A DNA stretch of 31,900 nucleotides from positions 1 through 31,900 of the IMG/VR virus record IMGVR_UViG_3300025018_000389, one strand, 5' to 3'. Under the pieces are notes generated by a model. That model was not told the DNA's origin, did not search any database, and saw only the letters and a program-made list of their open reading frames with translations. Both the position numbers and the translations under genes were made by a program. Below are positions 4,735-28,511 of the stretch, piece by piece (positions within the stretch are counted from its first letter, which is position 1; every line of letters begins with the position of its first letter). This DNA comes from a virus. Its lineage: Duplodnaviria; Caudoviricetes.

Positions 4735-4743
4735 TGGTATAAT
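4715..4743 (+). promoter_or_regulatory. Sigma70 promoter with extended -10
   Basis: GTGAAA (4715), 17-bp spacer, TATAAT (4738) with TG at 4735. Confidence 0.6.
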
Positions 4744-6973: not shown

Positions 6974-7125
6974 AAGAGCATAGGCACAAATTTGTAAAAA
7001 AAATAATTGATAAAAAAGGCAAAGCTAAGGTAGAAATAACCATCTGTTCTTGTGGATATCTAAAGCAATATAATGCATGGGATACAGAAGGAACGCATAG
7101 AGTTATAATCGGCGAGATTGAATAA
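6970..7125 (+). CDS. Hypothetical 51-aa protein with HxH...CxC possible metal site
   Basis: Not in the track. MKEHRHKFVKK...ITICSCGYLK..., with an ATGA overlap with the previous stop. Confidence 0.5.
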   Translation: MKEHRHKFVKKIIDKKGKAKVEITICSCGYLKQYNAWDTEGTHRVIIGEIE

Positions 7126-7223
7126 AGACGAGTAAAATCATATAATAGAATAGAACCAGACGTACAGAGCTGGCACGCGGGGAGAATTAGAAGTCACCGA
7201 GATTATCAAGGTGACTTTTTTTT
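7118..7223 (+). promoter_or_regulatory. Repeated late leader, copy A (promoter, hairpin, AGAAG, terminator) before terS
   Basis: TTGAAT-17-TATAAT; CCAG-acgtacagag-CTGG-CA; AGAAG; AAGTCACC/GGTGACTT stem with the T-run abutting ATG 7224. Confidence 0.8.
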
Positions 7224-7598
7224 ATGAAGTATTTTAAGTATTCTCCCGAAAGAGTTGAGGAAATCTGCAAGTACATATCTGAGGGGCTGTCCCAGAAGGA
7301 CGCCGCCATCCTCTCTGGTATCGGTGAATCTACTTTATATTATTGGAAATCTGAAAGCAAAGAAAATCCTAGCCCTCTTTCTGAAAAAGATAGACTAGCC
7401 CTACTAGAGTCATTAAAAAGGGCAGAAGCTGAAAATAAAAGACGGCACATAATAAATATCGACACGGCAAGTAATAAATCATGGCAAGCCTCGGCATGGT
7501 GGCTTGAAAGAAAATACAAGGATGAATTTGCAGTAAGAAGTGAAGTCACAGGAGGAGACGGCGAGAAATTGCAGATCGTTCTCGACATGCCGAAATAA
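7224..7598 (+). CDS. terS: Terminase small subunit
   Basis: N-terminal HTH, SWQASAWWLER motif, EVTGGDG tail. Directly upstream of TerL. Confidence 0.85.
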   Translation: MKYFKYSPERVEEICKYISEGLSQKDAAILSGIGESTLYYWKSESKENPSPLSEKDRLALLESLKRAEAENKRRHIINIDTASNKSWQASAWWLERKYKDEFAVRSEVTGGDGEKLQIVLDMPK

Positions 7599-9085
7599 TG
7601 AAACAATCATTTTACAAACTAGCAGGTTTTGAAAAAAACGATAGACAGATCGAAGCATACAAAACGCTCTTTGACAATCAGTGTAAGTATCTACTCTATG
7701 GAGGAGCCGCGCATGGTGGCAAATCATATTTTTTGAGATGGATTGCGATTGGACTTGGAATATATTACAGCACAAAGTACAACATTAAAAATGTACCGAT
7801 TGGACTGTTTTCCGAGGATTATCCGACGCTAAAAGATAGACAGATTGCGCGCATAAAGCATGAGTTTCCGCCATGGCTTGGGAAGCTTATTGAAGACCGT
7901 GATGAAGGGTATATGTTCAAAGCACGAGATGAGTACGGAGGATTTCGTATCTTGCTCCGCAATCTTGACGATCCATCAAAATATGCATCTGCTGAGTTTG
8001 CAGCGATTCTTGTTGAAGAACTGACTAAAAACCCTGTTGAAACATTTGAGGATTTGAGATTTAGGTTGCGGTACACAGGAACACGAGACATATTGAAAAA
8101 CGGGGAAAAGATAGGAGAAGAAAAGGTGATGATCGATGATCCGAAGTTTGTCGGTGTTACAAATCCTGGACAAATTGGTCATGCATGGGTCAGAAAGTTT
8201 TGGATCGAACCTGATCCGAGAAACCCTGATCCTGAGCAGGATAGATTCTTTTTCATAAGGTCGCTCCCTGAGGACAATCCATACACAACCGGCGAATATA
8301 TGAAGCAGCTTGACTCAATGCCTGAGTCAAAGCGTAAGGCGTGGAGAGATGGATCATGGGACGTATTTGAAGGACAGGTATTTGCAGAATGGAACAGAAA
8401 TATCCATGTTGTGAAACCGTTTCAGATACCTCCTGAATGGAGGCGATATATTGCAATGGACTGGGGATCGAATAAACCTTTTGCAATCGGTTGGTACGCA
8501 CAGAATTATGATGGTCAGTCTTATTTATATAGAGAGCTTTATATGAATAAGATTGACTTTGAGGCGCGCTATCATCAACCGCTCACAGCACGAAGGCTTG
8601 CAAGGCTCGTCTTGGATACGACGAAGAAAGCGGGAGAAGATTATGAGTATATGGTCGCCGATCCATCCATGTGGAATAAGATTTTACTTGGAGAAGATAG
8701 CAAGAAGCCAGAAGGAGAGTCATACGCTGAGATCATGATAGATGAAGGACTGAGAATGGTAAGAGCAGACAATGATCGAATGAATGGTTTGAATAGATAT
8801 CAGGAAGCGCTCGCCATTAAAAACGGAGTGCCAGAATATAGGGTATTTAGTACGTGTTACGACACGATACGGACAATACCAGCTCTCGTCTACAGCAAGA
8901 CAAGAGTTGAGGACGTAGATACGGACGCTGAGGATCATACATATGATCGTGATAGATATTATTTCATGTCACGACCAATAGCGGCAGATAGACAAGATGA
9001 AAAATTATCAGTTGTTGCAAAACACTTGAATGAAATCAAAAGAAATAGAGACCAAAACGACTGGGATCAAATCGAAGTCGTTTAG
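7598..9085 (+). CDS. terL: Terminase large subunit
   Basis: Walker A GGAAHGGKS, Walker B ILVEE, TNPG coupling motif, nuclease motifs AMDWG, ADPS and EDHTYD. Confidence 0.95.
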   Translation: MKQSFYKLAGFEKNDRQIEAYKTLFDNQCKYLLYGGAAHGGKSYFLRWIAIGLGIYYSTKYNIKNVPIGLFSEDYPTLKDRQIARIKHEFPPWLGKLIEDRDEGYMFKARDEYGGFRILLRNLDDPSKYASAEFAAILVEELTKNPVETFEDLRFRLRYTGTRDILKNGEKIGEEKVMIDDPKFVGVTNPGQIGHAWVRKFWIEPDPRNPDPEQDRFFFIRSLPEDNPYTTGEYMKQLDSMPESKRKAWRDGSWDVFEGQVFAEWNRNIHVVKPFQIPPEWRRYIAMDWGSNKPFAIGWYAQNYDGQSYLYRELYMNKIDFEARYHQPLTARRLARLVLDTTKKAGEDYEYMVADPSMWNKILLGEDSKKPEGESYAEIMIDEGLRMVRADNDRMNGLNRYQEALAIKNGVPEYRVFSTCYDTIRTIPALVYSKTRVEDVDTDAEDHTYDRDRYYFMSRPIAADRQDEKLSVVAKHLNEIKRNRDQNDWDQIEVV

Positions 9086-9455
9086 TCACCAACAGTTACT
9101 CGACGCTTTGTATTACATAGACGATGTGCTCTCTCGTGGAGCCATCCCCTATTTTGTCATAAAAGAGACAGCAGAATCGATTATACGTGGAGGTGAGCTA
9201 TCAGGTGACGGGATATATCTTGGTGTGAGATACACAGATTGGATCTCAAGCGGGATGGATATCGTGAGTCTTGTTGCTGACGCAAAAGACATATCAAAGA
9301 AGCTTATTGAATATGATCATTTAGGTGTGCCGATAACAATTGAGATATTCAAAAAAAATCATTCATGTATTGAAAGCACGGATCCCCTTCCCTACGCAAT
9401 GGAATATTTCTATGTCCCTAATCCTTATCAAACATTCAAAAAACTATATTTATGA
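9030..9455 (+). CDS. Hypothetical protein, possible degenerate LicD-like nucleotidyltransferase fold
   Basis: IPYFVIKETAESIIRGGELSGDGIYLGV echoes the LicD pattern, but the catalytic DxD is incomplete. Confidence 0.4.
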   Translation: MKSKEIETKTTGIKSKSFSHQQLLDALYYIDDVLSRGAIPYFVIKETAESIIRGGELSGDGIYLGVRYTDWISSGMDIVSLVADAKDISKKLIEYDHLGVPITIEIFKKNHSCIESTDPLPYAMEYFYVPNPYQTFKKLYL

Positions 9456-9697
9456 CAGACATAATACTCGGAGTAATAATTGTAGGTTTGATCGCAGAAC
9501 GATACCTATATGCTCGTCAGGTCAACAAACAGCAAGATCATTATATGCAAGCGCTGATTGCTAAAAATACAAATGAGTTTTTATCAATGAAAGAATCAGA
9601 AAACAAAAAAGATATACCGTTCAAAGAAAGTGACGAAATACCACTCGATCAAGCAAGTGACGAGACCTTTAACAAATTTATTAAAGAAACAGCATGA
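9452..9697 (+). CDS. Small membrane-anchored protein
   Basis: N-terminal TM IILGVIIVGLIA. Coupled overlaps on both sides. Confidence 0.65.
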   Translation: MTDIILGVIIVGLIAERYLYARQVNKQQDHYMQALIAKNTNEFLSMKESENKKDIPFKESDEIPLDQASDETFNKFIKETA

Positions 9698-11781
9698 ACC
9701 TGAAAGATTTCAAATTAACAAGAGAATTGAGTTTTCTAAAATCGGATTCAATTGGTGCGACGCTTGACGAACTAATAGGGCAAGCAATCGATCAAAGACG
9801 ATCGCACGAGCGACGATGGTTTGAGAATAATTACTTTGACGATGGATATCATTTCAAAGTAATATCAAAAAAGACTGGAAAAACCATTGATCATGTAGGA
9901 GGCACGGGAAACTATGTAGAGCGTGCAATCCCTCGCGCAAGTCGTCAGATCCGAGGAGTATCCAATCTGTTATTTGCAGCAGAGCCCTACCCTGTTGTAT
10001 ATCCGGCACGTGTTACAACTGCAAACTTTATTGATCCTCAAACGGGTCAAGTTGATATGCAAGCATATATGCAAGAGGTTGAAAAATCAAAGATGATTGC
10101 GCGAAAACAAGGCACATGGCTCACGACAGAATGGGAAGATAATCAAGACCTCGACATCAAGCTCATAAACATGATGTTAAAAGCTGCACGCAATTCGATT
10201 TCATACATTCAGATATGGAGCGATACAGAAAAACAGAAAATACATACAGAAGTCTATGATGCATTTGATATCATCCTATATGGAGATAAAGAAGAGTTGA
10301 AGCACTGTCCATTCATCACAAAGACACGAAGCCGTGTCATTAAAGACATCATGGCAGATGAGGCATACAAAAACGCAAATACAGAGAGATTGCAGCCCGA
10401 CAACAGATATGCAACGTCCGAGGTGAAGCAAGCATATATGGTGTCACGATATGGATCAAAGACCAATACAGAGAAGGAAGGCACAATCATGGAGAAAGAA
10501 ACATTTTTGAAAGAGAAGCTATCCGAATCCAACTGGAAAGATGCCGTCAAAAAAGGATCTGATACTGGTGCAATGGAGGGAAAATCAAAGGGAGATGATA
10601 TTATGCGCCATGTATTTTCAGCAGGCGGTGTCACACTTCTTGATGAATACATAAACTACGATAATTACCCATTTGCAGAGTTTAGATTCGAGCCAGGGTA
10701 TTTATACCAAAAACCATTCATTGAAAATTTCATCCCACAAAACAAGTCGCTCGATGTGATAATAACTCGTCTTGAAAAATGGATTAATACAATGGTTGTT
10801 GGTGTATATCAGAAGCAAAAGAATGAAAACTACAAAGTATCAAATATTCCAGGCGGTCAGATGATTGAATACGAAAGTATTCCCCTTCGTCAGATGGAAA
10901 CTTCAACTTTGGGAAACACGCCATTCAACATGGTTGAGCTACTTGACAAATATATTGAAGAGCAGGGATCATCGACATCTGCACTCAATCAACTACCATC
11001 AGGAGTCAAATCAGGAGTAGCTATAGAGTCGCTCAAGGCAACAGAATACGCAAACTTGAAAATTGCAACAAAGATGCTCAAAAAGACAATTCGAGACGTT
11101 GCAAATCTTATGCTTGAGCGCGCGGACAAAGACTTTCTTGAGCCTGTAGAGGTTGAGTACATGAATGACGGAGAGCCTGATTACTTCGATATCATAGGTA
11201 AAAGAGGGTATCAACTCTCACAACAAGTTGGGAAAGAATTACCACAAGATGTAGTCGTTATAAATAAAAAAGCAAAGGTGCGAATTGAAATTGAGCCAGG
11301 CTTAGGTCTCACGATGCAGGGTAAGCGCGAAGCAATGCAACAGATCATTACATTCATGGCTCAGTTTGCGGAGCTTGGAAAGATCCCACAAGAAGCACTC
11401 AATATGGTCATAAAGAAATTCCTTGAAACATTTGGGTATGGAAATACTCAGGAGTTTATGGAGTTACTTGATGACGGACTCACAACTCAAGAACTTGATC
11501 AAAATGCAATAGATAAGATAAAACTTGCTGTCGCAGAAACGATGAAAGACTTGGGAGCAGTAGGCGCAGAAGCAGATCAAAAGATGGTTGAGACGACAAA
11601 GCTCGGAGTTGCCGAGGCAATGCGCGATCTTGGGATGGTAAACAAGGAAAAGCCACAAGAGAGAAATAAGGTATCAATTTCATATAAAGATTTGCCACCA
11701 GAGGGCAAGGTACAGGCAGCGGGTCAAGCAGGGATTGCAATTGATGCAGGATCAGCAGCTCAGTCAATGGGGACAGTTTGA
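9694..11781 (+). CDS. Portal protein
   Basis: 695 aa, between TerL and scaffold/capsid. SGVKSGVAI resembles P22-like portals. Confidence 0.85.
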   Translation: MNLKDFKLTRELSFLKSDSIGATLDELIGQAIDQRRSHERRWFENNYFDDGYHFKVISKKTGKTIDHVGGTGNYVERAIPRASRQIRGVSNLLFAAEPYPVVYPARVTTANFIDPQTGQVDMQAYMQEVEKSKMIARKQGTWLTTEWEDNQDLDIKLINMMLKAARNSISYIQIWSDTEKQKIHTEVYDAFDIILYGDKEELKHCPFITKTRSRVIKDIMADEAYKNANTERLQPDNRYATSEVKQAYMVSRYGSKTNTEKEGTIMEKETFLKEKLSESNWKDAVKKGSDTGAMEGKSKGDDIMRHVFSAGGVTLLDEYINYDNYPFAEFRFEPGYLYQKPFIENFIPQNKSLDVIITRLEKWINTMVVGVYQKQKNENYKVSNIPGGQMIEYESIPLRQMETSTLGNTPFNMVELLDKYIEEQGSSTSALNQLPSGVKSGVAIESLKATEYANLKIATKMLKKTIRDVANLMLERADKDFLEPVEVEYMNDGEPDYFDIIGKRGYQLSQQVGKELPQDVVVINKKAKVRIEIEPGLGLTMQGKREAMQQIITFMAQFAELGKIPQEALNMVIKKFLETFGYGNTQEFMELLDDGLTTQELDQNAIDKIKLAVAETMKDLGAVGAEADQKMVETTKLGVAEAMRDLGMVNKEKPQERNKVSISYKDLPPEGKVQAAGQAGIAIDAGSAAQSMGTV

Positions 11782-11894
11782 CAAAAATAGATAAAAAATA
11801 GATAATATAAGTAGCGGTAAAAATGACCGCCATAACAAGCGAACAATAGAAGGCTTGGAAATCCAACAAAGTTTGGGTCTCCAGGCCTTTTTTT
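11778..11894 (+). promoter_or_regulatory. Repeated late leader, copy E, before scaffold/capsid
   Basis: TTGACA-17-GATAAT; GCGGT-aaaaatg-ACCGC-CA; AGAAG; AGGCTTGGA...TCCAGGCCT stem followed by T7. Confidence 0.75.
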
Positions 11895-11956
11895 GTTGGG
11901 TATACATTATCAATTACACAGCGTGTATATAAGCACGACTGGTAACTTATACGATT

Positions 11957-12685
11957 ATGGATAACCCAGATCAAGGTACAGAAGTGGCACCGATAGAAGC
12001 CCCTTCAAATATTGTTATAAACGGTGAGGAGTATTCACCAGATGAAGCTCAACAGCTTGTCGGTCTTGGAAAAAAGACACGTGAGTATGAGCAGAAATGG
12101 AATACATCACTAGATAAGGTTTGGCCCGAATATGGTCGTATAACTCAAGAGCATAAGACTGCAACGACTGAACTTGCACAGGCGCGTGAACAGCTTGCTA
12201 AATTCTCTGAAAAGAAGGATTTAGGAACTGAGACCGCAACTGATACAACGAAGGCGCGTGAAGCAGCTCGAAAGCTCGGAATTATCTTCAATGAGGATCT
12301 TGAGCAATCAGGATATATCAAAAAGGATGATTTACCAAAGTATTTTCAGCAATTTTCAGCAGAACAAAAAGCTGTTGAAAAAATCCTTGGGGATGCTGAT
12401 AGATATGAGGGGGAGATCACAGGAGCAGATGGACGACCGCCATTCAATAAGAAGGCTGTACTTGCATACATGCAAGCGTACAGCATTGAGGATCCGATGA
12501 AAGCATATGAAGATATGTACGATCCTCAACTCAAATCATGGAAAGACCAGCAGGTAACTGCTAAGAAAAACCCATCTTTGAGGACTATTGATAAGCCAGA
12601 AGGTAAGAAAGAGCCAAAACCTGTCAGAGTCACCGATGATAACGTAATGGATTTACTATCAGAGCGATTAGGCTCGAAAAATTAA
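11957..12685 (+). CDS. Capsid scaffolding protein
   Basis: Acidic, helical 242-aa protein between portal and major capsid. Confidence 0.7.
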   Translation: MDNPDQGTEVAPIEAPSNIVINGEEYSPDEAQQLVGLGKKTREYEQKWNTSLDKVWPEYGRITQEHKTATTELAQAREQLAKFSEKKDLGTETATDTTKAREAARKLGIIFNEDLEQSGYIKKDDLPKYFQQFSAEQKAVEKILGDADRYEGEITGADGRPPFNKKAVLAYMQAYSIEDPMKAYEDMYDPQLKSWKDQQVTAKKNPSLRTIDKPEGKKEPKPVRVTDDNVMDLLSERLGSKN

Positions 12686-12702
12686 TAATTAAATAAATTT
12701 AC

Positions 12703-13968: not shown

Positions 13969-13971
13969 CCT

Positions 13972-14325: not shown

Positions 14326-14342
14326 ACATTCAATAATTACAT

Positions 14343-15005: not shown

Positions 15006-15028
15006 AAAATAAAGTTATTTTTAGTGAG

Positions 15029-15057
15029 AAATACCCGTAGCAATGCGGGTATTTTTT
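15029..15057 (+). terminator. Intrinsic terminator ending the capsid unit
   Basis: AAATACCCGTA-GCAA-TGCGGGTATTT followed by a T-run. A TATAAT follows at 15061. Confidence 0.85.
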
Positions 15058-15094
15058 GTGTATAATACCCATGCAGAACAAACCTATGAAATAA

Positions 15095-15748
15095 GTGTCA
15101 AAACTACAAGCATTTTATTTTCAAGATTTCAAAAACTCATTCCTTCCTCACATACTTAAAGAGGTATATCTCGATAGAATTTACGATCAGTATACTCACG
15201 GCAAGAAAGACCTCACAATCGTTGATTTGGGAAGTAATATAGGGATCACGAACTTCTACTTCAAAGACTACGCAAAAAGACTCATTGCGGTTGAACCTTC
15301 AAAAGATCACATAGAGACATTAAAGGCAATGCACGCACAAAACGATATGAATAATGTCGAGATATATCCGTATGCAATATCTTCAAAAAATGGCACTGAG
15401 ACGTTTTATCATAATTCAAATACCACAATGTTTTCTCTTCGCGGAGAGGTGAATAATCAAGGGATTTCTGAGAAAGTTGAGACAAAGACACTTTACCAGC
15501 TCATGGATGACTTGAAGATCAAGCATATCGATATACTCAAGATGGATATCGAAGGCTCTGAGTATGATCTTATCGTATCTGACGGCTTTGCAAAGGTGAA
15601 GGATAAAATCGATCTCATTTTGGGTGAGTTTCATACATGGAGTGGTGTCAATCCACAGCAATTTGCAACGTGTTTTATGGACTATGGTTATGAGTTCAAA
15701 TGGATGAATGCCACGGCGGCGAGTACATTTGTAGCGAAAAGGAAATGA
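15095..15748 (+). CDS. FkbM-family SAM-dependent methyltransferase
   Basis: VDLGSNIG, IAVEP and IDILKMDIEGSE motifs. Confidence 0.92.
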   Translation: MSKLQAFYFQDFKNSFLPHILKEVYLDRIYDQYTHGKKDLTIVDLGSNIGITNFYFKDYAKRLIAVEPSKDHIETLKAMHAQNDMNNVEIYPYAISSKNGTETFYHNSNTTMFSLRGEVNNQGISEKVETKTLYQLMDDLKIKHIDILKMDIEGSEYDLIVSDGFAKVKDKIDLILGEFHTWSGVNPQQFATCFMDYGYEFKWMNATAASTFVAKRK

Positions 15749-15864
15749 ATAGAGAGGATTATATAATAATTGGCGTAATGGTCGGATTTGTCGCATATAT
15801 TACAGTACAAATAGCCATTGGATTTACTTATTTTATTAAATTTCTCGTATATTCAACACTATGA
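15745..15864 (+). CDS. 39-aa hydrophobic peptide
   Basis: Not in the track. MNREDYIIIGVMVGFVAYITVQIAIGFTYFIKFLVYSTL, with ATGA overlaps at both ends. Confidence 0.5.
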   Translation: MNREDYIIIGVMVGFVAYITVQIAIGFTYFIKFLVYSTL

Positions 15865-16058
15865 AAAAAGAAATACTTAAAGTAATTTCACCTGAAGGAT
15901 ACGAGATAGTATACATAAGTGAATATTTTTTTAATGTTTTAGAAAAGGAATTAAAGAGAATATCTAGGCATGGTGGGGAATATGATGGTTCAATAATGAC
16001 ATGTCTAAGAGATGAGCTTGCAATGATTGAATTTAGAAGTTTATATCGTAAAATATGA
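15861..16058 (+). CDS. Hypothetical protein
   Basis: Translationally coupled 65-aa ORF. Confidence 0.55.
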   Translation: MKKEILKVISPEGYEIVYISEYFFNVLEKELKRISRHGGEYDGSIMTCLRDELAMIEFRSLYRKI

Positions 16059-16867
16059 AAAAACCAGTAATCGCCGTAACAATTGCAGATGAGAAGAATA
16101 TGAAGTATGCGAAGATGCTTGAAAACTCACTTCGTAAATTTCATACAGAAAAGGAATTACCACTCAAAATCATATCAGGTGAAGATTTGAAAGCAGAGCT
16201 TGCAAATGATCCTCACTTCTTTTATCGAGCAACGCCTGTCATTGGCGAGAAGCTACTGAAAGAATACGATCTTGTACTAAAGTTAGACGCAGATCAGATA
16301 GTGACGGGGGACCTCAACTATATACTAAATACAAAAGATTATGACGTGGGAACCGTCCTCAATTGGAATAGAATCGATCCTCAAACGTATGGACTTGTTC
16401 AGGGATGGGGTATATCCCCTGTTGAGTACTTTAATTGTGGACTTGTAGCAATGAGAAGTGAGAAGTTTGTACATCACTGGGCGGTAATATGCTTTACTCC
16501 GCAATTTGAAAGCGAAAGCTTGCAGTATAAAGAGCAGGATTTGCTCAATATATTGTGCTATTACGGGAATTATAATGTGAGATGTTTTGATCATGGAGAT
16601 GGGATAGCAAACTACTATTCATGGCATGGACTTATAAGCAAAGGTGAATGGCTTCGTGCTGAGATGAAAGGTGATAAGATAGTCGTCCCCCCAGACACAT
16701 CAAGCAAAAGCGCATTTGCAAGAGAGTGGCAAATAAGAGTCATACATTGGGCTGCAGGGAGTGGGTCAGCGGATAAAATGAACTATAAGACTAAGTTTAG
16801 TGAAGACGTAATAAAGAGACTGGATTACTTAGTTGGTGATAAAAATGAAAAAAATACCACTAAGTAA
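16055..16867 (+). CDS. GT-A fold glycosyltransferase (GT8-like)
   Basis: LKLDAD (DxD), YFNCGLV, EQDLLN and IHWAAG. Confidence 0.85.
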   Translation: MKKPVIAVTIADEKNMKYAKMLENSLRKFHTEKELPLKIISGEDLKAELANDPHFFYRATPVIGEKLLKEYDLVLKLDADQIVTGDLNYILNTKDYDVGTVLNWNRIDPQTYGLVQGWGISPVEYFNCGLVAMRSEKFVHHWAVICFTPQFESESLQYKEQDLLNILCYYGNYNVRCFDHGDGIANYYSWHGLISKGEWLRAEMKGDKIVVPPDTSSKSAFAREWQIRVIHWAAGSGSADKMNYKTKFSEDVIKRLDYLVGDKNEKNTTK

Positions 16868-17345
16868 GGGTAAATTTGCAATAGTCGACGACGATGATTT
16901 TGAATATTTAAGTAAATTCAAATGGTATTATGTTTTTAAGAAACGCTCAAGAAACGGATATGCTGTAAGGGATTTTTCTAGAAATATAGAAATTATAAAA
17001 GAGTTTGGAGTAAGCCATGTTACAATGCATAGATTCATTATAAAACCGTCGAGAAATAAACTGGTCGATCATGTTAATGGAGATGGTTTAGATAATAGAA
17101 AATCTAATCTTAGAGAATGTACGCATACTCAAAATAATGGTAATTTTCTATTAGGTAGTAGGAATAGAAGCGGATATAAAGGTGTATCTTGGCATAAAAC
17201 TACAAAAAAATGGAGAGCAAGTTTAATGACGAAAGAAAAACAAATATATTTAGGTTTATTTATAAATCCTAAAGATGCTGCTGCAGCATATAATCGAGAA
17301 GCGATAAAGTATTTTGGCGACTTTGCTAGAATAAATCAACTATAA
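16845..17345 (+). CDS. HNH endonuclease with C-terminal AP2 domain
   Basis: VDHVNGDGLDNRKSNLR; SGYKGVSW...KWRA...YLGLF...AAAAYN. Start at MKKIPL. Confidence 0.92.
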   Translation: MKKIPLSKGKFAIVDDDDFEYLSKFKWYYVFKKRSRNGYAVRDFSRNIEIIKEFGVSHVTMHRFIIKPSRNKLVDHVNGDGLDNRKSNLRECTHTQNNGNFLLGSRNRSGYKGVSWHKTTKKWRASLMTKEKQIYLGLFINPKDAAAAYNREAIKYFGDFARINQL

Positions 17346-17353
17346 AATTCATA

Positions 17354-17431
17354 GTCAGACTACAGGGCTGACCACGTTTGCCGAATTACAGAAGGGCATA
17401 CATATATAAATTCAATTATATTTGTATGTCT
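17354..17431 (+). promoter_or_regulatory. Repeated late leader, copy F; second hairpin buries the GT4 start codon
   Basis: GTCAG-actacaggg-CTGAC-CA; AGAAG; GGCATACA...TGTATGTC stem containing ATG 17426. No T-run. Only TAAAAT (17343) upstream, without a clear -35. Confidence 0.65.
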
Positions 17432-18580
17432 AAAAAAGACAAATCTTTACGACTTTTTATAAACAGTAACGCCCCTTGGTCTATATCAGGATACGGTCAA
17501 CAGATGGCGGAGCTTGTGCACCGTGTGCGAGGTGAGGGCTATCCACTTGCAGTATCTGCATTCTACGGTCTTGAAGGTGGGATACTGAGCATGAATGATA
17601 TCGTATATTATCCAAAAATAAATCACGTATATGGATCGGATTCACTTGTGCACCATGCAAAAGACTTCAACGCTGATATTGTGTTCACTCTTCAAGATAT
17701 ATGGATCCTTCATCCGGACGACTTGAAACAGGTAAAAAAGTGGATACCCATTGTGCCTATCGATCATGAGCCCGTGCCACAACAGATAATAGACCGACTA
17801 AAGATGGCATATCGTATCGTGACATACTCTAAATTTGGATATGAAGAGCTAAAGCGTAATGGACTACACAGTACATATATCCCACACGTAGTAGATACAA
17901 AGGCATATGCGCCGCAAGATAAGAAGAAAAGAAAGATTGAAGCGGGGCTTCCAGAGGATGTATTCTTGTGTGGGATGGTATCTGCTAACAAAGACAATCC
18001 ACCTCGTAAGTCATTTCAGGAGGCAATGGAGGCATTCAAGATGTTTCTTGAGAAAGTGCCAAAGGCAATGCTGTATATTCATACATTTCCCGATTTCCCC
18101 GGTGGATTCCCGATTAAGGAGTTTGCACAGTTTCTCGGTATAAAGGATAAAATTATATTTCCGAACGAATACCTCATGAACTACAAGTATGGGAAAGAAC
18201 AGATGTCAAATGTATACAACACATTTGATATGCTCCTTTGTCCTTCTACAAATGAGGGATTTGGAGTTCCTATTATTGAGGCACAGTCATGCGGAGTGCC
18301 TGCAATAGTCAATAACTTTACCTCAATGCCTGAACTTGTGAAAAATCACATAACGGGTGAGATATGCGATATCGGATACAAAAGGTATGATCAGCTCGGA
18401 TCATATGTTGCGACACCTGATGTAAAGTCACTCTATGACTGTATGATGAGGATTTACCAGTCAAATAGAGAGAAAATGAGCATAGCTGCAAGAAAGCATA
18501 TTATAGAAAATTATGACTGCGAGACGGTATTCAAAGAAAAGTGGATTCCATTTCTTTCACGTCTTGAAGAAGAGGTGTAA
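17426..18580 (+). CDS. GT-B fold glycosyltransferase (GT4-like)
   Basis: SGYG, RKS and PSTNEGFGVPIIEAQSCGVP (E-x7-E). Start at MSKKDK. Confidence 0.92.
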   Translation: MSKKDKSLRLFINSNAPWSISGYGQQMAELVHRVRGEGYPLAVSAFYGLEGGILSMNDIVYYPKINHVYGSDSLVHHAKDFNADIVFTLQDIWILHPDDLKQVKKWIPIVPIDHEPVPQQIIDRLKMAYRIVTYSKFGYEELKRNGLHSTYIPHVVDTKAYAPQDKKKRKIEAGLPEDVFLCGMVSANKDNPPRKSFQEAMEAFKMFLEKVPKAMLYIHTFPDFPGGFPIKEFAQFLGIKDKIIFPNEYLMNYKYGKEQMSNVYNTFDMLLCPSTNEGFGVPIIEAQSCGVPAIVNNFTSMPELVKNHITGEICDIGYKRYDQLGSYVATPDVKSLYDCMMRIYQSNREKMSIAARKHIIENYDCETVFKEKWIPFLSRLEEEV

Positions 18581-18662
18581 AAAATATATAATGTAAGTGC
18601 AGTATACGGGACTGCCATATTGTGTTTAAGAAGGCACTGAAACTATTATCAGTGCTTTTTTT
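18564..18662 (+). promoter_or_regulatory. Repeated late leader, copy B, before the neck/tail block
   Basis: TTGAAG-17-TATAAT; GCAGT-atacggg-ACTGC-CA; AGAAG; GCACTGA/TCAGTGC stem followed by T7; ATG 18669. Confidence 0.8.
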
Positions 18663-18668
18663 ATACCT

Positions 18669-18977: not shown

Positions 18978-19031
18978 TGAACGTCACGATTAAAGTAAAA
19001 CCAATCAAAATATCAATTTCTAATAAAAAAA

Positions 19032-19454: not shown

Positions 19455-19458
19455 CGTA

Positions 19459-22780: not shown

Positions 22781-23061
22781 ATGATCTAGGGCTTGATATA
22801 TTCTTGCAACCGAAAAACTCCCCGATTGTCAATAATCAGATAATTACCTCTTCATATGATTTTGACGGTCAGTATGAGCGAAATAGTGTGGGGAATAATA
22901 AGATAGCATTTTTATCAGCGGATAAGATCGCGTCAGGTACGGTCATTGTGGGATTAAATTTGGGATCTTCAACAAGTGGATATGTACTACTTGATGGGGC
23001 AAATAATAGAATAGTTGTCAATGATGGGACGACAAATAGAATAGTTATTGGGAGCGTATAA
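22777..23061 (+). CDS. Small tail protein
   Basis: SADKIASGT and NRIVVNDGTTNRIVIG beta-repeat tail motifs. Confidence 0.6.
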   Translation: MNDLGLDIFLQPKNSPIVNNQIITSSYDFDGQYERNSVGNNKIAFLSADKIASGTVIVGLNLGSSTSGYVLLDGANNRIVVNDGTTNRIVIGSV

Positions 23062-23064
23062 ATT

Positions 23065-23421
23065 ATGGGAATGACAATGAGAGTATCCCTACCAGGGTAC
23101 GACTGTTTAACTGATACAACTATCGATAATTACTCGATATATGCAGATACGGACAATATTCTTATCAAAGAAAAGACAAGGGGGACGATAAGCGTTGCAA
23201 ATATTGCAAACGGCACAATCGCTCATAGTTTGGGGTATATTCCACTATATTTTACATATTGCCAAGTCTCATCGGGAAGATATCGACTATCAACATATAG
23301 AGATTTGCTCGGAGACACATGGAGAACGTATGTAGATACCTCAAATCTATACATACAAAACAGGCAGGGAACAGCCGGTACAGCGGTGAGATATTATATT
23401 TTTCATGACGAATTAACATGA
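23065..23421 (+). CDS. Tail protein, paralog 1
   Basis: MRVSLPGYD...TIAHSLGYIP...RYYIF. Confidence 0.65.
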   Translation: MGMTMRVSLPGYDCLTDTTIDNYSIYADTDNILIKEKTRGTISVANIANGTIAHSLGYIPLYFTYCQVSSGRYRLSTYRDLLGDTWRTYVDTSNLYIQNRQGTAGTAVRYYIFHDELT

Positions 23422-23813
23422 CCGAAACTATTAGAGTATCAAAGCAAGGTGTCGATGTTTTGGGTACTGCTGGGACAGTTCCCAACAATACTATAGTTGA
23501 TACTAATCTGAATACGTTTAAGATTCTTTCGCAGGGTACTGTTGCGTTGTCATTTGGAACAGCAGGTGGCACAACAACCATCGCGCATGGACAAGGTCAA
23601 ATAATTTCTGCATACGCATTTTTTAAATTTTCGAGTGGATATGTCACTCTGCCGGCACAAGGAGACAAAGGAACTGCATCAGGAGGTGATTTTAGTGGTA
23701 TATGGGATCTGGAAATGGATTCCACAAATTTATACATGGTATTTGGGGCATCGTCTTCTGTAAATTACAATGGAACAGCAAAATATTTAATATTTGAAGC
23801 CCCAGCATCATGA
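23418..23813 (+). CDS. Tail protein, paralog 2
   Basis: IRVSKQGVDVLGTAGT...TIAHGQG...KYLIF. Confidence 0.65.
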   Translation: MTETIRVSKQGVDVLGTAGTVPNNTIVDTNLNTFKILSQGTVALSFGTAGGTTTIAHGQGQIISAYAFFKFSSGYVTLPAQGDKGTASGGDFSGIWDLEMDSTNLYMVFGASSSVNYNGTAKYLIFEAPAS

Positions 23814-24259
23814 ACCAAATAATTAGAGTGTCGAAGGATAATATTGATGTACTCGGTACTGCAGGTACTGCACCAAACAATCTGAACTACTCATCTGACT
23901 ATAATACACTAAAATACTATGCGGATGGAACACTACAAATAGTGGTGAATAGAGCCAACTATTACGGCACAGCCGCGGCATTCCCGAGTGGTACTGCATA
24001 CTACAATATCGGGTATGGAACAGTAACACATAATCTTGGATATTATCCATTCTATACAGCATTTGTGCAGTCGGGGACAACTGGTCAGTGGAATATGGCT
24101 CCACAATTTACTGGCGATTCAGGATTCTTCTCGAGGCATGAGGCTTTTGCAGGAACATCAAAACTTGAGTTTCAATTTCACTTTAATACAACATTTAATA
24201 GTGGATTTTCAACTGCAGATTTTAAATACAAAATATTCAGAAACAATCTTGGTTTGTAG
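23810..24259 (+). CDS. Tail protein, paralog 3
   Basis: IRVSKDNIDVLGTAGT...VTHNLGYYP...KYKIF. Confidence 0.65.
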   Translation: MNQIIRVSKDNIDVLGTAGTAPNNLNYSSDYNTLKYYADGTLQIVVNRANYYGTAAAFPSGTAYYNIGYGTVTHNLGYYPFYTAFVQSGTTGQWNMAPQFTGDSGFFSRHEAFAGTSKLEFQFHFNTTFNSGFSTADFKYKIFRNNLGL

Positions 24260-24260
24260 C

Positions 24261-24358
24261 TTGAAGTAATAGACTAAAAACAATATAATATAACTACCAG
24301 ACATACGGGGCTGGCATACGTGATAAAGAAGACACTGTAATTACAAGTGTCTTCTTTT
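24261..24358 (+). promoter_or_regulatory. Repeated late leader, copy C, before the ejection proteins
   Basis: TTGAAG-17-TATAAT; CCAG-acatacgggg-CTGG-CA; AAAGAAGACACT/AGTGTCTTCTTT stem; ATG 24363. Confidence 0.8.
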
Positions 24359-24362
24359 ATAC

Positions 24363-25334
24363 ATGGCAGGACTCAATGTATCTCAAATAATAGATCGTGC
24401 AAAACAAACTGGCGTCAATCTCTCGAACGAACAAGCAGATGGGATCCTCAAGCAGACTTTTAGCCAAAGCATATACGGCGCAGATCCTGGCAAAGTAGAT
24501 GCATTGATCCGCACAAATTATTCAACACCTTCATACGGGTCATCCAATCAATCTTCAGGTGGGGGCTTCTCATCAACAAATACTTCAAATCCTCAATCAT
24601 ATATCGACGCTGCAATGGCTTCATATAAAAAAGCAAATGAGCCAGCAATAGCAAACCTCAAAGCCTCAATTCCTGAGCAACAAAAAGCATTCTCGAATGA
24701 GCGCACGAGACTTCAAGGACAAGAGGGAAGTATCAAAGATAGATATACAAATCTAATCGACTCAATAAAAGGAAATCAGAAGCTCTCAGAAACTCGCCAG
24801 ACAACAACGACAAATAATGAACTTGCTCGTCGTGGAATAACAAATGATTCAGGTGTGTATGAGCAAGAAATGACAAATACTCTCAATCCGATAACTCAAC
24901 AATATACAGGACTCGCAAAGGATGCGGCAATTTCTCAAGAAGCAGACCTCAAAGACTTGTCAGGTCGTATCACGGGGCTCACTGATCAGGAGAGCGCAGC
25001 AATTCGGTCAATCCTCGGCAATATCGCAGGTCTTGAATCAGGTGCAGGAAATAATGCAGTATCGACGGGACTCAATATGTTTTCACAAGATAGATCACGA
25101 GAAGACAGCACAAGAGCAATGGAAGCAGAGAAGGTACTACAAGAAGCAGATCGAGCATTCAAGGAAAAGCAATTTAATGAAAGTATCAGGCAGTTTAATA
25201 CGCAAGAGGGACGGCTAGGTAAGGCCACAGCAACCGACCCATTCGCATATCTTAAATCGGGGACAACTGTAAATAATAAGCCACTAACATCAAAGCCAAC
25301 ATCGAAGCCAACAGTTTATCAGTCGAGACAATGA
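24363..25334 (+). CDS. Putative internal virion/DNA-ejection protein
   Basis: Q/S/A-rich helical protein with LARRGI..SG and QFNE..RQFN motifs. Position fits. Confidence 0.55.
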   Translation: MAGLNVSQIIDRAKQTGVNLSNEQADGILKQTFSQSIYGADPGKVDALIRTNYSTPSYGSSNQSSGGGFSSTNTSNPQSYIDAAMASYKKANEPAIANLKASIPEQQKAFSNERTRLQGQEGSIKDRYTNLIDSIKGNQKLSETRQTTTTNNELARRGITNDSGVYEQEMTNTLNPITQQYTGLAKDAAISQEADLKDLSGRITGLTDQESAAIRSILGNIAGLESGAGNNAVSTGLNMFSQDRSREDSTRAMEAEKVLQEADRAFKEKQFNESIRQFNTQEGRLGKATATDPFAYLKSGTTVNNKPLTSKPTSKPTVYQSRQ

Positions 25335-25351
25335 AGAATTAAAAATTAAAC

Positions 25352-25397
25352 AAAAAAAATACGCCGCTTATTTCTTGCCAGAAGCAGCGACGTATTT
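25352..25397 (-). terminator. Hairpin with minus-strand U-run (antisense-oriented terminator)
   Basis: AAATACGTCGCT...GGCA loop...AGCGGCGTATTT followed by a T-run on the minus strand. Confidence 0.55.
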
Positions 25398-25410
25398 AAA
25401 TTCAATCAGT

Positions 25411-25620
25411 ATGAATAGTTTACCACATTTCGAGTATAAGAAACAAGTGTACTCTAACGAAAACAAAATGATAAAGCAATTAGAAAAGATAAACGTTTCT
25501 AAAGCATGGAATTTATTGATAAAGCGATTATTGATTGAGGGATCGCCTTATATATGGTTTCTTTTTACAGCATTAGTTTTAGGAAAAATTATTATTTACG
25601 TTTTTAATTCAATAAAATAA
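25411..25620 (+). CDS. Small protein with C-terminal TM helix (start uncertain)
   Basis: YIWFLFTALVLGKIIIYVF in an AT-rich insert. Stop lies immediately before the next ATG. Confidence 0.4.
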   Translation: MNSLPHFEYKKQVYSNENKMIKQLEKINVSKAWNLLIKRLLIEGSPYIWFLFTALVLGKIIIYVFNSIK

Positions 25621-25621
25621 T

Positions 25622-27997
25622 ATGGACTTACTTTCAAGAATTATACAATTAGGGAAAGCTGGAGGAAAAAAAATAGCACCATTCGTGTTGTCTCCTGTTG
25701 TGAGAGATGTGGCAAAAACCGTTGGAGGAATCGGCGGAATGACCAAAGACTATTTTGAATACAACTCAGCCGGCTCACAACCTGAAAAACAAAAACAACT
25801 TATTGAATATAATCAAAAAAGAAATAATGTGAATAATGTACTCTCAGGTTTTGGTTTCGATGCAAGCAAAACGGGAAATCAATTTGATCCTGTACAGTAT
25901 GGTAAGAAAGTAGGTCTTGGAGGCATCGAGCTTGCTACACAAAGACTTCCTTTTGGTAAAATCCCGGGTGGGATCAATAAAATAGCAAATCCTATTTTAA
26001 AAAATATCGCACGTCTCGGAATAGGATACGGTGTACCCGCAGGATATCAGGCAGGAGCGCAAACTGCATACGACACGGATGGTGATATAAAATCAACATT
26101 GAAGTCAGTGCCTACGGGAGGGCTATTTGGAGCAGGAGTTGCTGGGGCCGGAAAGATTGGAATCGGCGGACTTAATCTCATTACGAAGAATTTTAAAAAC
26201 TTTTCTAGCTCATTAGAAGACATAGCTGCACAATCACTTACAAAGGCTACGCCTCAACAGTATCAGAAGGCAGTAGAAGAGGCGGGGGTAGACATAAACA
26301 AGCTTGTGAAAAAATATATTCCAGCGGGATCGAATTTTGATGATATTGTGGGAGACATCAGTAAACGAGGGAAAGGTGGCGTGGTAAAAGATCTTTTAGA
26401 CAAACAAGAAAGTATTATACAAGGTACGGCTAAGAGGGCTGGATCAACAGTAAAACTCTTTGGTGATGACCTAATAAAATCTCTGAAAAAGGAATCGAGA
26501 ATTATACAGGATGAGCTCGGCGGAGGAAATAGAGATAAGGCAATCAAAAGTCTTGTTGCTGAGGCTGAGAAGAAGTATAAAAATGGAATTACTGTCAAAA
26601 AAGCAGTAGATATATTGAGGCGTGCAAACAAGAAGTTTGGTAAAAATATAGTTGATTCAGATCCAGGGGATGCCATCGCAAATGCAGCACAGAAGCTTGA
26701 GGGGAATGTGATGAGAAAAGCTCTCAAAACAATGTTTCCCGATATGGCAGACGCTCTCGATACGCAATCTGAGCTATTGACTTTACGACCACTTTTAAAT
26801 AGAGCTCGATCAATAAATTCTACGCCAGGATCATCTATAAGGACGGGAACATTGGATGCCTTGGATTTAAGTAAACCATTATCTATTCCAAAGCGACTAA
26901 TGGAAGCAAGAGCTAGTAATCCTGAAACTGCATCGAATGTTATGCAAGGGAAAGATGGTTTTGCAAACTTAACCAATATCTTGGGTAAAATACCAGAGAT
27001 AGACAGCAATAGTGGTATACAATCACTCCTTTCGAGACTTGGAGCTAGAGCTGCCTCCGCTATAAATACTCCCGATCAAAACAAGAACAATGCACAGAGC
27101 TATCCAAATAACGTACCCCTTAATAACGAAGTTGACAATGAAATCAATCAAAGTAGTAATTTAAATACTAATACCCAAATTTTACCACAAAACACAGAAA
27201 GTCAAGGGGGTTTTGATCCTGAATCACTCATGAAGCAAGGATATCAGCAGTCTCAAGATGGCCAGTACTTGATAAATCCACAGACTCAAGATGCTTTATC
27301 AACAGATGGACAGTGGAAATTTGACTATGAACAGAATGACTGGGTACCAAATCCTCAAGCATCTCAGCCACAAGGAAATGCACAGCTAGATGATATTTCC
27401 TCACAACTAGAGCAAGGGATGATAAATGCACTTAATGCAGGGGATTATAAAGCCTTCTCACAACTCCTTGATATGAGCAATAAGACTGGCTCGATGGGTG
27501 GAGTAAATAAAGATCAGATATCAGGAGAAACCGACTTGAGAAAAGAGTTTGTAGGTAGAGCAAAGGAATTTGACGTCATAAAGCAGTCTTATGACAAAAT
27601 TTCAAACGCCTCACCGAATCCACAAGGGGATATGTCGCTTATATTTGCATATATGAAAATGCTTGATCCTGGATCTACGGTACGCGAAGGAGAGTACGCA
27701 AATGCAGAAAGCACAAGAAGTGTACCAGAAGAGGTAAGAGCGTCATACAATAAAGCGCTGAAAGGTGAAAAGCTTTCTGAAGGTCAAAGAGCAGGTTTTA
27801 AAAATGAGGCAGCTGTAATATACAATAGCGCATTAAATCAGCAACAGACTTTGATGGGAGAATACGAAGGGCTTGCTGGACAATATGGGCTTGATCCATC
27901 GAGGATTGTGGGTCAAAGCTACAAAGAACTAAAAAAGGCTGAAAAAATGCAAGTACCACAGGAGCGAAATATATTGCAGCAAATTCTAGGGCTATAA
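25622..27997 (+). CDS. Large putative internal virion/DNA-ejection protein
   Basis: 791 aa with Gly-rich hydrophobic helices, an N/Q-rich linker and C-terminal KMLDPGSTVREGE. Podovirus ejection-gene position. Confidence 0.6.
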   Translation: MDLLSRIIQLGKAGGKKIAPFVLSPVVRDVAKTVGGIGGMTKDYFEYNSAGSQPEKQKQLIEYNQKRNNVNNVLSGFGFDASKTGNQFDPVQYGKKVGLGGIELATQRLPFGKIPGGINKIANPILKNIARLGIGYGVPAGYQAGAQTAYDTDGDIKSTLKSVPTGGLFGAGVAGAGKIGIGGLNLITKNFKNFSSSLEDIAAQSLTKATPQQYQKAVEEAGVDINKLVKKYIPAGSNFDDIVGDISKRGKGGVVKDLLDKQESIIQGTAKRAGSTVKLFGDDLIKSLKKESRIIQDELGGGNRDKAIKSLVAEAEKKYKNGITVKKAVDILRRANKKFGKNIVDSDPGDAIANAAQKLEGNVMRKALKTMFPDMADALDTQSELLTLRPLLNRARSINSTPGSSIRTGTLDALDLSKPLSIPKRLMEARASNPETASNVMQGKDGFANLTNILGKIPEIDSNSGIQSLLSRLGARAASAINTPDQNKNNAQSYPNNVPLNNEVDNEINQSSNLNTNTQILPQNTESQGGFDPESLMKQGYQQSQDGQYLINPQTQDALSTDGQWKFDYEQNDWVPNPQASQPQGNAQLDDISSQLEQGMINALNAGDYKAFSQLLDMSNKTGSMGGVNKDQISGETDLRKEFVGRAKEFDVIKQSYDKISNASPNPQGDMSLIFAYMKMLDPGSTVREGEYANAESTRSVPEEVRASYNKALKGEKLSEGQRAGFKNEAAVIYNSALNQQQTLMGEYEGLAGQYGLDPSRIVGQSYKELKKAEKMQVPQERNILQQILGL

Positions 27998-28381
27998 TAG
28001 ATCAAAAGGCTCAACATTGTACTTAGAAAGACATAATCTAAAAAGTATATTTCCAAGTTTTTCATATTCTTCAATTGAGATGCCTCCTCCGGCCTGTATA
28101 TTATTTCGTAAATTACTTGAACAATGAGAAACGACATCTTCTTTTGATAGATATTGTAAATATTCAAAATCAATTTCTAATCCGTCCCTGATCATACTTC
28201 TAATTGTTGTGGAATTTCCCTCCATATCCTCGATTGGTTGATCGATGATTAATTTGTTGATCGTTACGATAGGCTTTCTGGTAGTTTTGCGAACTTCTTT
28301 TTTTGAAATCAATTCTTGTGAAAAAAAACCCAAGATAAAAATTACTAAAGCAACGACCAAAATAGATAATTTTCTATACAT
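27992..28381 (-). CDS. Antisense-oriented membrane-anchored protein (moron-like)
   Basis: MYRKLSILVVALVIFILGFF anchor. GAGGGG precedes ATG 28381. Confidence 0.6.
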   Translation of the reverse strand: MYRKLSILVVALVIFILGFFSQELISKKEVRKTTRKPIVTINKLIIDQPIEDMEGNSTTIRSMIRDGLEIDFEYLQYLSKEDVVSHCSSNLRNNIQAGGGISIEEYEKLGNILFRLCLSKYNVEPFDLL

Positions 28382-28409
28382 CCCCTCAATATACATCCAT
28401 ATTTCAAAA

Positions 28410-28511
28410 TTTACAATAATGTCATAAAAAGGTATAATAGAAGTACCGCATAAAGAGGGCGGCAATATGTGTTCATAGAAGACACTGCATTATCAGTCAG
28501 TGTCTTTTTTT
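28410..28511 (+). promoter_or_regulatory. Repeated late leader, copy D, before the fibre/lysis block
   Basis: TTTACA-17-TATAAT; CCGC-ataaagagg-GCGG-CA; AGAAG; GACACTG/CAGTGTC stem with T7 abutting ATG 28512. Confidence 0.8.

Follow-up and report, generated by a model that had tools for sequence, protein, structure and literature searches.

The window analysed here, the whole 31,900-nt stretch, comes from a temperate phage and carries six copies of one leader on its plus strand, each before one of six blocks of virion genes and each located where the initial annotation had placed it (Table 1). A close relative of the phage was found within a Ca. Roizmanbacteria contig, and the host group is the ultra-small candidate-phyla (CPR) bacteria. 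About 9 kb of the phage genome, including part of the early region, may be missing, since a 40.7-kb contig is present in the same capsid cluster.

The -35 and -10 hexamers, spaced by 17 bp as had been claimed, were found again in five of the six leaders (7118, 11778, 18564, 24261 and 28410), and the copy at 17354 is the one with no recognisable promoter. The first hairpin (P1), with a stem of 4 bp and a loop of 9-10 nt, starts 6-9 nt after the -10 hexamer, close to the 5-9 nt given before, and its stems are present exactly as quoted (CCAG/CTGG, GCAGT/ACTGC, CCGC/GCGG, GCGGT/ACCGC and GTCAG/CTGAC). The word AGAAG is invariant in the window (6/6 copies). The CA after P1 is likewise present in all six window copies and the TACRG loop in four of the six, but among relatives only the C of the former is near-invariant (55/56) and the latter is not conserved. 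The spacer before AGAAG measures 10-15 nt, against 10-17 nt in the initial annotation, and it is not merely variable as described there: it pairs with the bases just 3' of AGAAG to give another hairpin (P2), of which it is the 5' strand. A U-run follows the third hairpin (P3) in five of the six copies; the scaffold AUG lies about 65 nt further on, and the GT4 copy has no U-run, its AUG at 17426 being inside P3. A hairpin with a U-run of the ordinary type also follows the head block and suggests, as far as its letters can tell, that the late blocks end separately; 3' of it, a -10 hexamer stands 4 nt before the ATG at 15071, which opens an FkbM methyltransferase gene.

Table 1. Leader copies and associated features in the window
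Feature	Position	Strand	Parts	Context
Promoter-like site	4715..4743	+	extended -10	upstream of zinc-ribbon gene
Zinc-ribbon gene	4843..5055	+	70 aa, four-cysteine, CxxC..LG..R-F-H..CxCG	
Leader 1	7118..7223	+	-35 7118; -10 7141; P1 7156-7173; AGAAG 7189-7193; P3 terminator 7193-7215; U-run to 7223	before terminase small subunit, ATG 7224
Leader 2	11778..11894	+	P1 11814-11830; P2 11836-11857 (5 bp); AGAAG 11848-11852; P3 terminator 11852-11887, then U-run	before scaffold (by position) and major capsid block, ATG 11957
Hairpin with U-run, terminator-like	15031..15073	+		after head block
Leader 3	17354..17431	+	P1 17354-17372; P2 4 bp; AGAAG 17390-17394; P3 17394-17431	before GT4 glycosyltransferase
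Leader 4	18564..18662	+	P1 18599-18615; P2 4 bp; AGAAG 18629-18633; P3 18633-18656; U-run	before neck/tail block, ATG 18669; SU10-type adaptor downstream
Leader 5	24261..24358	+	P1 24297-24314; P2 3 bp; AGAAG 24327-24331; P3 24331-24351; U-rich tail	before 24363, putative ejection proteins by position only
Leader 6	28410..28511	+	P1 28446-28462; P2 4 bp; AGAAG 28477-28481; P3 28481-28504; U-run	before fibre, LamG and amidase block, ATG 28512

The full architecture was matched five times in the window and in none of 200 shuffles, and a descriptor of its core gave seven matches in the window against a mean of 0.175 over 200 shuffles. The seventh core match, at 3499, was rejected as a leader, its stem being broken in the close relative L002; we take it to be a degenerate tRNA 3' half or an att site on the minus strand. 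The motif had been judged to lie outside known families, and a scan of the window with Rfam 15 bore this out, yielding no family and three sub-threshold matches (E 0.4-0.72), one of which touches only the scaffold terminator stem; in five related loci, the same scan picked up a host tRNA, a tmRNA fragment of 18 nt and nothing else. Scans of viral contigs with a DNA pattern (120 and 116 stretches) returned essentially chance matches, the descriptor adding to the phages already known just one chance match of high GC content, and no match to the capsid or the zinc ribbon was obtained in a collection of isolated phages. A published description of the leader was not found in the full-text literature, nor was there a match in the three of six supplements searched of a catalogue of viral candidate RNAs (PMC10690425). 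A term search of a 2025 review of RNA-binding antiterminators (PMC12591593) found neither "phage" nor "zinc".

Both covariation and conservation were found in related phages. In 66 copies aligned by a covariance model, which fits them to the structure, 98.5% of the P1 cells were paired, with two-sided changes at all four pairs. P2 was part of no model, and its pairing was compared with shuffled spacers and with swapped partners. In 38 curated copies, P2 had a mean of 4.13 consecutive pairs, compared with 2.71 for shuffled spacers and 2.95 for swapped partners, and in 28 held-out copies 3.71, compared with 2.57 and 2.83, respectively; the observed pairing was reached by 0 of 2000 draws in each null for either set. 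When a single copy per phage was retained (25 phages), the value was 4.09 against 3.03 (0 of 1000 draws). P2 is not equally strong throughout, having only two or three consecutive pairs in two window copies and fewer than three in 8 of the 28 held-out copies; that of leader 1 has two, and four in its orthologues in L001 and G004. The predicted folds with P1 and P2 are not clean in every copy either. Inspection by eye of one alignment (A5) revealed no consistent pseudoknot joining the P1 loop to the spacer. A broad descriptor of P2 and P3 was given up, as it missed known copies. AGAAG is displayed in the P2 loop, which is 6-16 nt long (6 nt in only 1 of 38 copies), and the two loops end alike, with an A six nt before the closing G-C pair, followed by purines; in P1, this A, six nt from the 3' end of the loop, is kept in 37 of the 38 curated copies.

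P3 also covaries, with loops that are not conserved, and it shares the 3' strand of P2, the two hairpins being mutually exclusive. In all six window copies, the state with P3 is predicted to be 8-16 kcal/mol more stable than the state in which P3 is forbidden. AGAAG pairs with the U-run in the predicted P3 folds, and a Shine-Dalgarno-like word precedes only 3 of the 34 window genes; both would fit AGAAG being a mere A-tract that makes the terminator stronger, or a displaced ribosome-binding site that the hairpin moves close to the AUG, with constitutive and leaky expression. We regard this as most improbable, because AGAAG persists in copies lacking a U-run and in those whose AUG is 50-80 nt away or has a Shine-Dalgarno-like site of its own, and because P1, P2 and the joint loss with the zinc-ribbon gene described below would be left unexplained.

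P3 takes two output forms, a predicted terminator in five window copies and a hairpin that buries the AUG in the sixth (GT4), and AUG-burying copies were seen in several phages. Since there are copies that lack a terminator and bury or adjoin a start codon, the element is predicted to act on translation as well as on transcription. The suggestion of the initial annotation, late control distributed over the operons and off by default, is supported by the covariation, the conservation, the strand bias of the matches and the absence from Rfam, and its interpretation as a whole is partly supported. The other possibility raised there, that what each copy serves to make is the short promoter-to-terminator RNA itself, acting in trans as a small RNA or as a protein decoy, is very unlikely in our judgement. 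Five copies would indeed yield discrete RNAs of 60-85 nt from strong promoters, and an orphan copy in the host genome G109 has no long ORF behind it; however, 67 of 68 model matches lie on the coding strand, the copies stand in sense orientation directly before late genes that have no other evident promoter, the P3 loops are unconserved, and several copies are devoid of a terminator or a promoter and overlap the AUG.

The leader is conserved across relatives of this phage, and its presence follows that of a small zinc-ribbon gene. In 18 of 19 loci with this gene, and in none of five without it, a terminator precedes the scaffold ATG by no more than 130 nt, using thresholds relaxed after a first pass (13/19 and 1/5); the informative loci were 24 of 79 portal loci and are related to each other. 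On the portal tree, the five loci without the gene are scattered over five separate positions. Four of these five contigs were examined whole, and both the gene and the leader were absent from them, while the neighbouring epimerase gene was retained in three of the four. Matches to the model R2 were obtained in 13 of the 19 loci with the gene, partly training loci and some weak, and in none of the five without it. Among 2967 ORFs, no other ORF family tracks the leader, the zinc ribbon being present in 17 of 17 leader-bearing sequences and, by construction, in none of the five negatives, which were defined by absence of the gene. In all 16 portal loci where both were matched, the gene lies upstream of the first leader. 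The correspondence has a limit in phages with divergent zinc ribbons (G005, G156, G157, L319, L337 and L343), which have different or one-hairpin leaders; P1 is therefore not shared by all, and the R-F-H motif follows the leader imperfectly. In the first 11 phages, R-F-H had looked clean as a strict indicator of this leader type, but it failed in the larger set.

The switch could be real and yet have a host protein or a small molecule as its reader, the zinc ribbon being a passenger of the packaging/sugar region. A conserved sensor with a terminator or start-codon output is a riboswitch-like architecture, and one orphan copy does reside in a host genome (G109, beside a tRNA-like remnant). Such a reader seems improbable to us, given that the zinc ribbon is lost together with the leader while the epimerase stays, that sequence conservation is low for a small-molecule pocket, and that the host-genome searches gave only the G004 prophage and that orphan. 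Each of the two large host searches, in which only 34-35 candidates per genome were scored, gave matches in 3 of 151 genomes, and the other three matches look like chance. The zinc ribbon itself was present in 1 of 401 genomes of the host class.

The zinc-ribbon family comprises 209 representatives at 50% identity. In 102 homologues, C9, C12, C49 and C51 are conserved in 97-102 and Arg32 in 92, and the protein would, on this pattern, bind zinc. No Pfam, PHROG or NCBIfam family was assigned to it. Its predicted structure (pLDDT 86) is small and all-beta; no PDB chain was matched at Z>=5, the best matches in a viral structure library were uncharacterised small cysteine-rich phage proteins (E 0.013-0.06), and fold searches gave nothing clear, with ESM Atlas matches being unnamed clusters. 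Behind the promoter-like site upstream of the gene, no leader of the present family was detected. The 70-aa zinc ribbon is likely to be the reader of the leaders.

We consider it probable that the leader is a cis-acting RNA switch, off by default and turned on by this protein. Host polymerase would start at the near-consensus sigma-70 promoter and produce first P1 and then P2. In unbound RNA, the more stable P3 would displace P2 through the common 3' strand. Together with the U-run, P3 would stop transcription once about 60-85 nt had been made; in copies with no U-run, it would hide the AUG. By binding both loops, the zinc ribbon would hold P2 and thereby prevent P3 locally, and each late block would need its own copy, as the effect would be local. 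In this scheme, the transcription starts, termination, binding, stoichiometry and timing are what we infer. The hairpins might instead serve to load an antiterminator that acts processively by modifying RNA polymerase, following the logic of lambda N/nut, HK022 put, Q or AlpA, with the zinc ribbon or another phage protein acting on polymerase. The element begins close to +1 of strong promoters, its loss together with the zinc ribbon would fit equally, and small zinc-finger phage proteins acting on polymerase exist (TraR/Orf73, PMC9239242). This is nevertheless unlikely, as a loading site needs neither a covarying P2 nor its sharing of a strand with P3, copies with no promoter or terminator bury the AUG, and a processive factor would have no need of six copies within 21 kb.

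The routes known for late control in temperate phages are mainly DNA-directed activators, processive antitermination of the Q type and phage polymerases. An RNA switch in each operon with a 70-aa zinc-ribbon reader would add a further route, would assign a function to an unannotated phage protein family, and would reveal how genes are regulated in phages whose CPR hosts are uncultured, for which it would be the first late-gene switch defined. The chances seem to us about even that it represents a widespread undescribed class, in which tiny zinc ribbons read tandem RNA loops in leaders before each virion block and switch terminators and buried start codons, the protein and the RNA code diverging together between clades like N/nut pairs. 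Since the parts are small (an RNA of about 70 nt, a 70-aa protein and sigma-70-type promoters), the proposal can be tested in E. coli or in vitro despite the unculturable host, and, if true, it could provide a compact, host-independent on-switch for synthetic use.

Among known systems, lambdoid late control works through Q at pR'-tR', and through N/nut. The leaders resemble the Q arrangement in having a constitutive host-type promoter, a short leader and a terminator before late genes, and the gene for the candidate activator precedes the first of the late promoters; they differ in that five promoters replace the single late promoter and the signal covaries as RNA. No Q, N or NusG-like family was detected by PHROG and Pfam among the 51 window ORFs, part of the early region being missing. 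BglG, SacY and LicT are PTS-regulated proteins that act on a single RAT stem. These proteins stabilise an antiterminator hairpin overlapping a terminator (PMC3369931), as is proposed for the leader, whereas the RAT-type protein family is absent here. Q and AlpA (PMC9371919) read promoter DNA and act processively at one or a few promoters, and here an RNA structure is repeated for each block and has translational variants.

Com of phage Mu (PMC6483171) is a small four-cysteine zinc protein that binds a hairpin beside a structure hiding the start codon and activates mom translation. The zinc ribbon is likewise a small four-cysteine phage protein, here presumably zinc-binding, and AUG-burying forms of P3 are predicted, with binding known for Com and predicted for the zinc ribbon. 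Com, however, has one mRNA with a CC(N)2-3GAG hexaloop, in contrast to six targets, mostly terminators, and a two-hairpin site. No Com Pfam match was found among the 102 homologues at E<=0.01, and hhalign of the zinc ribbon with Mu Com gave a probability of 10.5, aligning only a 10-column cysteine knuckle.

The ANTAR proteins (EutV, NasR and AmiR; PMC3369931 and PMC8934654) recognise a pair of small hairpins whose loops are alike, the downstream one sharing bases with a terminator's 5' strand, in several copies per pathway, some of which overlap translation starts. The loops described there are hexamers with A1 and G4, whereas those of P1 are 9-10 nt and those of P2 mostly 8-13 nt. The candidate reader here is a small all-beta zinc ribbon with phage late genes as targets, and no ANTAR domain was matched by Pfam among the 51 window ORFs of this incomplete genome or the 102 homologues. 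The leader nonetheless has a tandem pair of hairpins with stems of 3 bp or more, and its second hairpin likewise overlaps the terminator's 5' strand; both systems are repeated, with some copies at translation starts. The exclusion of P3 by P2, together with P3 as a terminator or an AUG-burying hairpin, thus points to a putative default-off, dual-hairpin switch of ANTAR-like design.

The six copies of the leader, which consists of a hairpin (P1), a C or CA, a spacer, AGAAG and a downstream hairpin (P3), were borne out as the initial annotation had described them. A descriptor of stem, CA, spacer and AGAAG matched the window 7 times, compared with an average of 0.175 over 200 dinucleotide-shuffled sequences, and 5 matches were obtained when a -10 box and U-run were added, compared with 0 in all 200 shuffles. 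The seventh match, at 3499, was rejected as a leader copy, being an att-like degenerate tRNA half with the stem broken in a related locus (L002). The motif had not been recognised as a known family, and a search of Rfam returned no matching family. The leader is, then, a real feature uncatalogued in Rfam.

Relatives were gathered by searching on the capsid, terminase and portal. A first covariance model (R1), derived from 21 leader copies, gave 40 matches in 28 sources; another 72 portal loci contributed 34 matches, each of them on the coding strand, and the rebuilt model (R2) gave 67 of 68 matches on the coding strand among 98 sources. The covariation and conservation of P1 in related phages, for which a check had been proposed, were found in a 66-copy alignment fitted to the structure, in which pairing reached 98.5% in P1, whose four pairs all showed two-sided changes, and 89.3% in P3. 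The CA and AGAAG had been described as invariant; the C after P1 was near-invariant (55/56 copies across phages) and AGA(A/G)G was kept, but the other base of CA was not among the positions kept across phages, which were limited to these, a P1-loop A lying six nt from the 3' end of that loop (37/38 curated copies) and a purine at loop position -2. The P1 picker favoured the loop A and the C in the held-out set, so their counts there are not independent.

The spacer, annotated as variable, did differ in sequence between copies, but it is also the 5' strand of a further hairpin: it is complementary to the 4-6 nt after AGAAG and therefore closes P2, in whose loop AGAAG occupies the 3' end. Across 38 copies curated by hand (R1 matches, GT4 copies and the G109 orphan described below, leaving out L002 duplicates, one antisense match and the divergent G004 fibre copy), P2 had a mean of 4.13 consecutive pairs, whereas shuffled spacers gave 2.71 and swapped partners 2.95 (0/2000 null draws each), one mis-anchored copy being undercounted. 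The values for 28 held-out copies (the 34 matches minus 2 used in training, 2 lacking an anchor and 2 duplicates) were 3.71, 2.57 and 2.83 (0/2000), with 8 of the 28 below 3 pairs by this strict measure, and one copy per phage in 25 phages gave 4.09 versus 3.03; P2 was part of neither model, although the R1 sequence consensus could still favour it, which the swap control covers in part. P2 and P3 are mutually exclusive, since the strand that forms the 3' side of P2 also forms the 5' side of P3. In the six window copies, the P3 state exceeded the best P3-free fold in stability by 8-16 kcal/mol, and predicted folding of the nascent RNA placed P1 and P2 before the completion of P3 in most copies. 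Furthermore, the loops of P1 and P2 have similar ends, each carrying an A six nt ahead of the closing G-C pair, and may thus be tandem sites for a single protein. The leader is very probably a cis-acting two-state switch, a reading that is well supported.

Two outputs can be distinguished. A U-run follows P3 in five window copies, whereas the GT4 copy has neither promoter nor U-run and carries the AUG within the P3 stem, a layout shared by the GT4 copies of L001 and L004 and the portal or neck copies of G001 and G002, all relatives; in some other copies P3 ends 3 nt before the AUG. Of the 34 genes in the window, no more than 3 have a Shine-Dalgarno-like word, so a hairpin located around the start codon would be predicted to prevent initiation. 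The presence of an ordinary terminator after the capsid region points to separate ends for the late blocks and to local relief. The FkbM gene probably begins at 15071, driven by a leaderless promoter, and relatives also have an ungated promoter before it.

Features of the window and related genomes
Feature	Position	Strand	Remark
Leader, terS	7118		
Leader, scaffold/capsid	11778		
Leader, GT4	17354		
Leader, neck/tail	18564		
Leader, ejection	24261		
Leader, fibre/lysis	28410		
Gene order			leftward replication-initiator + Erf, integrase, sugar cluster, terminase, portal, capsid, glycosyltransferases, SU10-type adaptor, fibre, amidase
Leftward promoter-like site	3626-3598	minus	strongest leftward; reads via tRNA half into terminator, ahead of early genes
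Att-like degenerate tRNA 3' half	about 3495-3530	minus	
Terminator	3489-3455		
Zinc-ribbon gene	4843-5055	plus	70 aa
Sugar cluster (late region)	4986-6973, 15071-18580		epimerase, split transketolase-like pair, FkbM methyltransferase, GT8, GT4; kept across phage clade
51-aa ORF	6970-7125		His and Cys pairs; overlaps -35 box of leader 1; conservation not found among clustered relatives
Ordinary terminator	15031-15057		
Terminator, then -10 hexamer	15031-15073		hexamer 4 nt before ATG 15071 (FkbM)
HNH-AP2 endonuclease gene	16833-17345		inserted between GT8 and GT4 leader; absent from close relative L001
134-aa ORF	27992-28396	minus	antisense, between ejection block and leader 6; predicted N-terminal membrane stretch; moron-like, without family
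Sister-clade leader type	G156:C1 about 15200-15300, 27180-27250		two copies
Another leader type	G157:C1 about 39000-39100		also in L026, L027
Inverted block	G004:C2 about 468200-483100 (L276, L277)		scaffold to last ejection-type gene, relative to window
G109 orphan leader	L282:1501-1588 (G109:C35:7058-7145)		complete, with promoter, 6-bp P2, terminator

As a candidate reader, gene clustering of ten related sequences identified a conserved ORF with four cysteines (zinc ribbon); in the window a promoter-like site of its own accompanies it. Its family numbers 209 representatives at 50% identity and has near-invariant residues C9, C12, L19, G20, G26, R32, C49 and C51, and a confident all-beta model (pLDDT 86); Pfam, NCBIfam and PHROGs held no family for it, with only scattered generic zinc-finger matches. 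A homologue was present in 29 of 79 portal loci, 4.0-7.8 kb upstream of the portal. Among 24 distinct loci with a visible scaffold gene and known gene state, 19 had the zinc ribbon and 5 did not (no match in at least 8.5 kb upstream). R2 matched 13/19 versus 0/5 of these partly training loci (Fisher p 0.011); a model-free terminator test in a 230-nt window gave 13/19 versus 1/5, the single positive having its terminator upstream of the promoter, and 130-nt criteria relaxed after that pass (0-2 nt allowed before the U-run) gave 18/19 versus 0/5 (p 1.4e-4), these p-values ignoring the relatedness of loci. On a portal tree made with FastTree the five gene-less loci occupied five separate positions, three of which adjoined leader-bearing sister rows. 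The whole contigs of four gene-less phages, two with direct terminal repeats, contained no zinc-ribbon homologue, R2 match or U-run gap before late genes, and three kept the epimerase that flanks the zinc ribbon in the window. A screen of 2967 ORFs, drawn from 17 sequences with the leader and 5 negative ones, showed the zinc ribbon as the sole family present in 17/17 and 0/5 (the latter by construction), and no rival family tracked the leader. The gene was also present in every one of the 13 leader-bearing loci for which 8.5 kb or more of upstream sequence was available. This co-occurrence makes the zinc ribbon a probable reader of the leader.

Phages with divergent zinc ribbons count against a simple pairing of the two. 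Their leaders are of other types (G156, G157), consist of P2 only (L337, L319) or, in G005, amount to one degenerate copy, which restricts P1 to particular clades and leaves P2 as the possible core of the leader. Sister clades have different promoter-hairpin-terminator leaders and zinc ribbons differing at the R-F-H turn, which are candidate alternative specificity pairs. In the full mechanism, the leader would act as a local switch opened by the zinc ribbon for each late block, which we consider likely on balance.

The phage, represented by the entire 31.9-kb viral contig, is temperate. Its host is probably a CPR bacterium because its capsid protein is 86% identical to a prophage protein on a 487-kb contig (L012, G004) titled Ca. 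Roizmanbacteria bacterium UBA1450; a second genome with a capsid match, a 34.7-kb contig that is phage throughout and titled Aquaspirillum, is taken as misbinned. A similar tRNA-like half flanks the integrase in the G004 prophage, and integration would likely separate the leftward promoter from the early operon. The inverted G004 block, either an inversion or a misassembly, leaves the scaffold leader back to back with the fibre leader, which is a divergent variant there. The sugar cluster may serve virion glycosylation or cell-surface modification. As a host regulon, the leader was not found in 151 genomes of G004's order searched with R1, where the 3 matching genomes were accounted for by the prophage, the G109 orphan and one chance match in a coding region, or in 151 of the phylum searched with R2 (3 matching, two apparently by chance). 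The orphan, which lies about 500 nt from a degenerate stretch resembling a tRNA and is followed by no long ORF, is likely a prophage remnant.

Lambda Q and N serve as comparisons for late control. The literature searched contained no description of the leader or zinc ribbon, the supplements of PMC10690425, a possible listing, being covered in part. By hypothesis, the zinc ribbon would work like Mu Com (PMC6483171), with homology between them not detectable. As in ANTAR antitermination (PMC3369931, PMC8934654), the leader comprises two hairpins, the stem of the second overlapping the terminator, and has translational variants, whereas its loop size and protein family place it outside ANTAR. The leader would represent a new variant of protein-assisted attenuation, serving phage late control.
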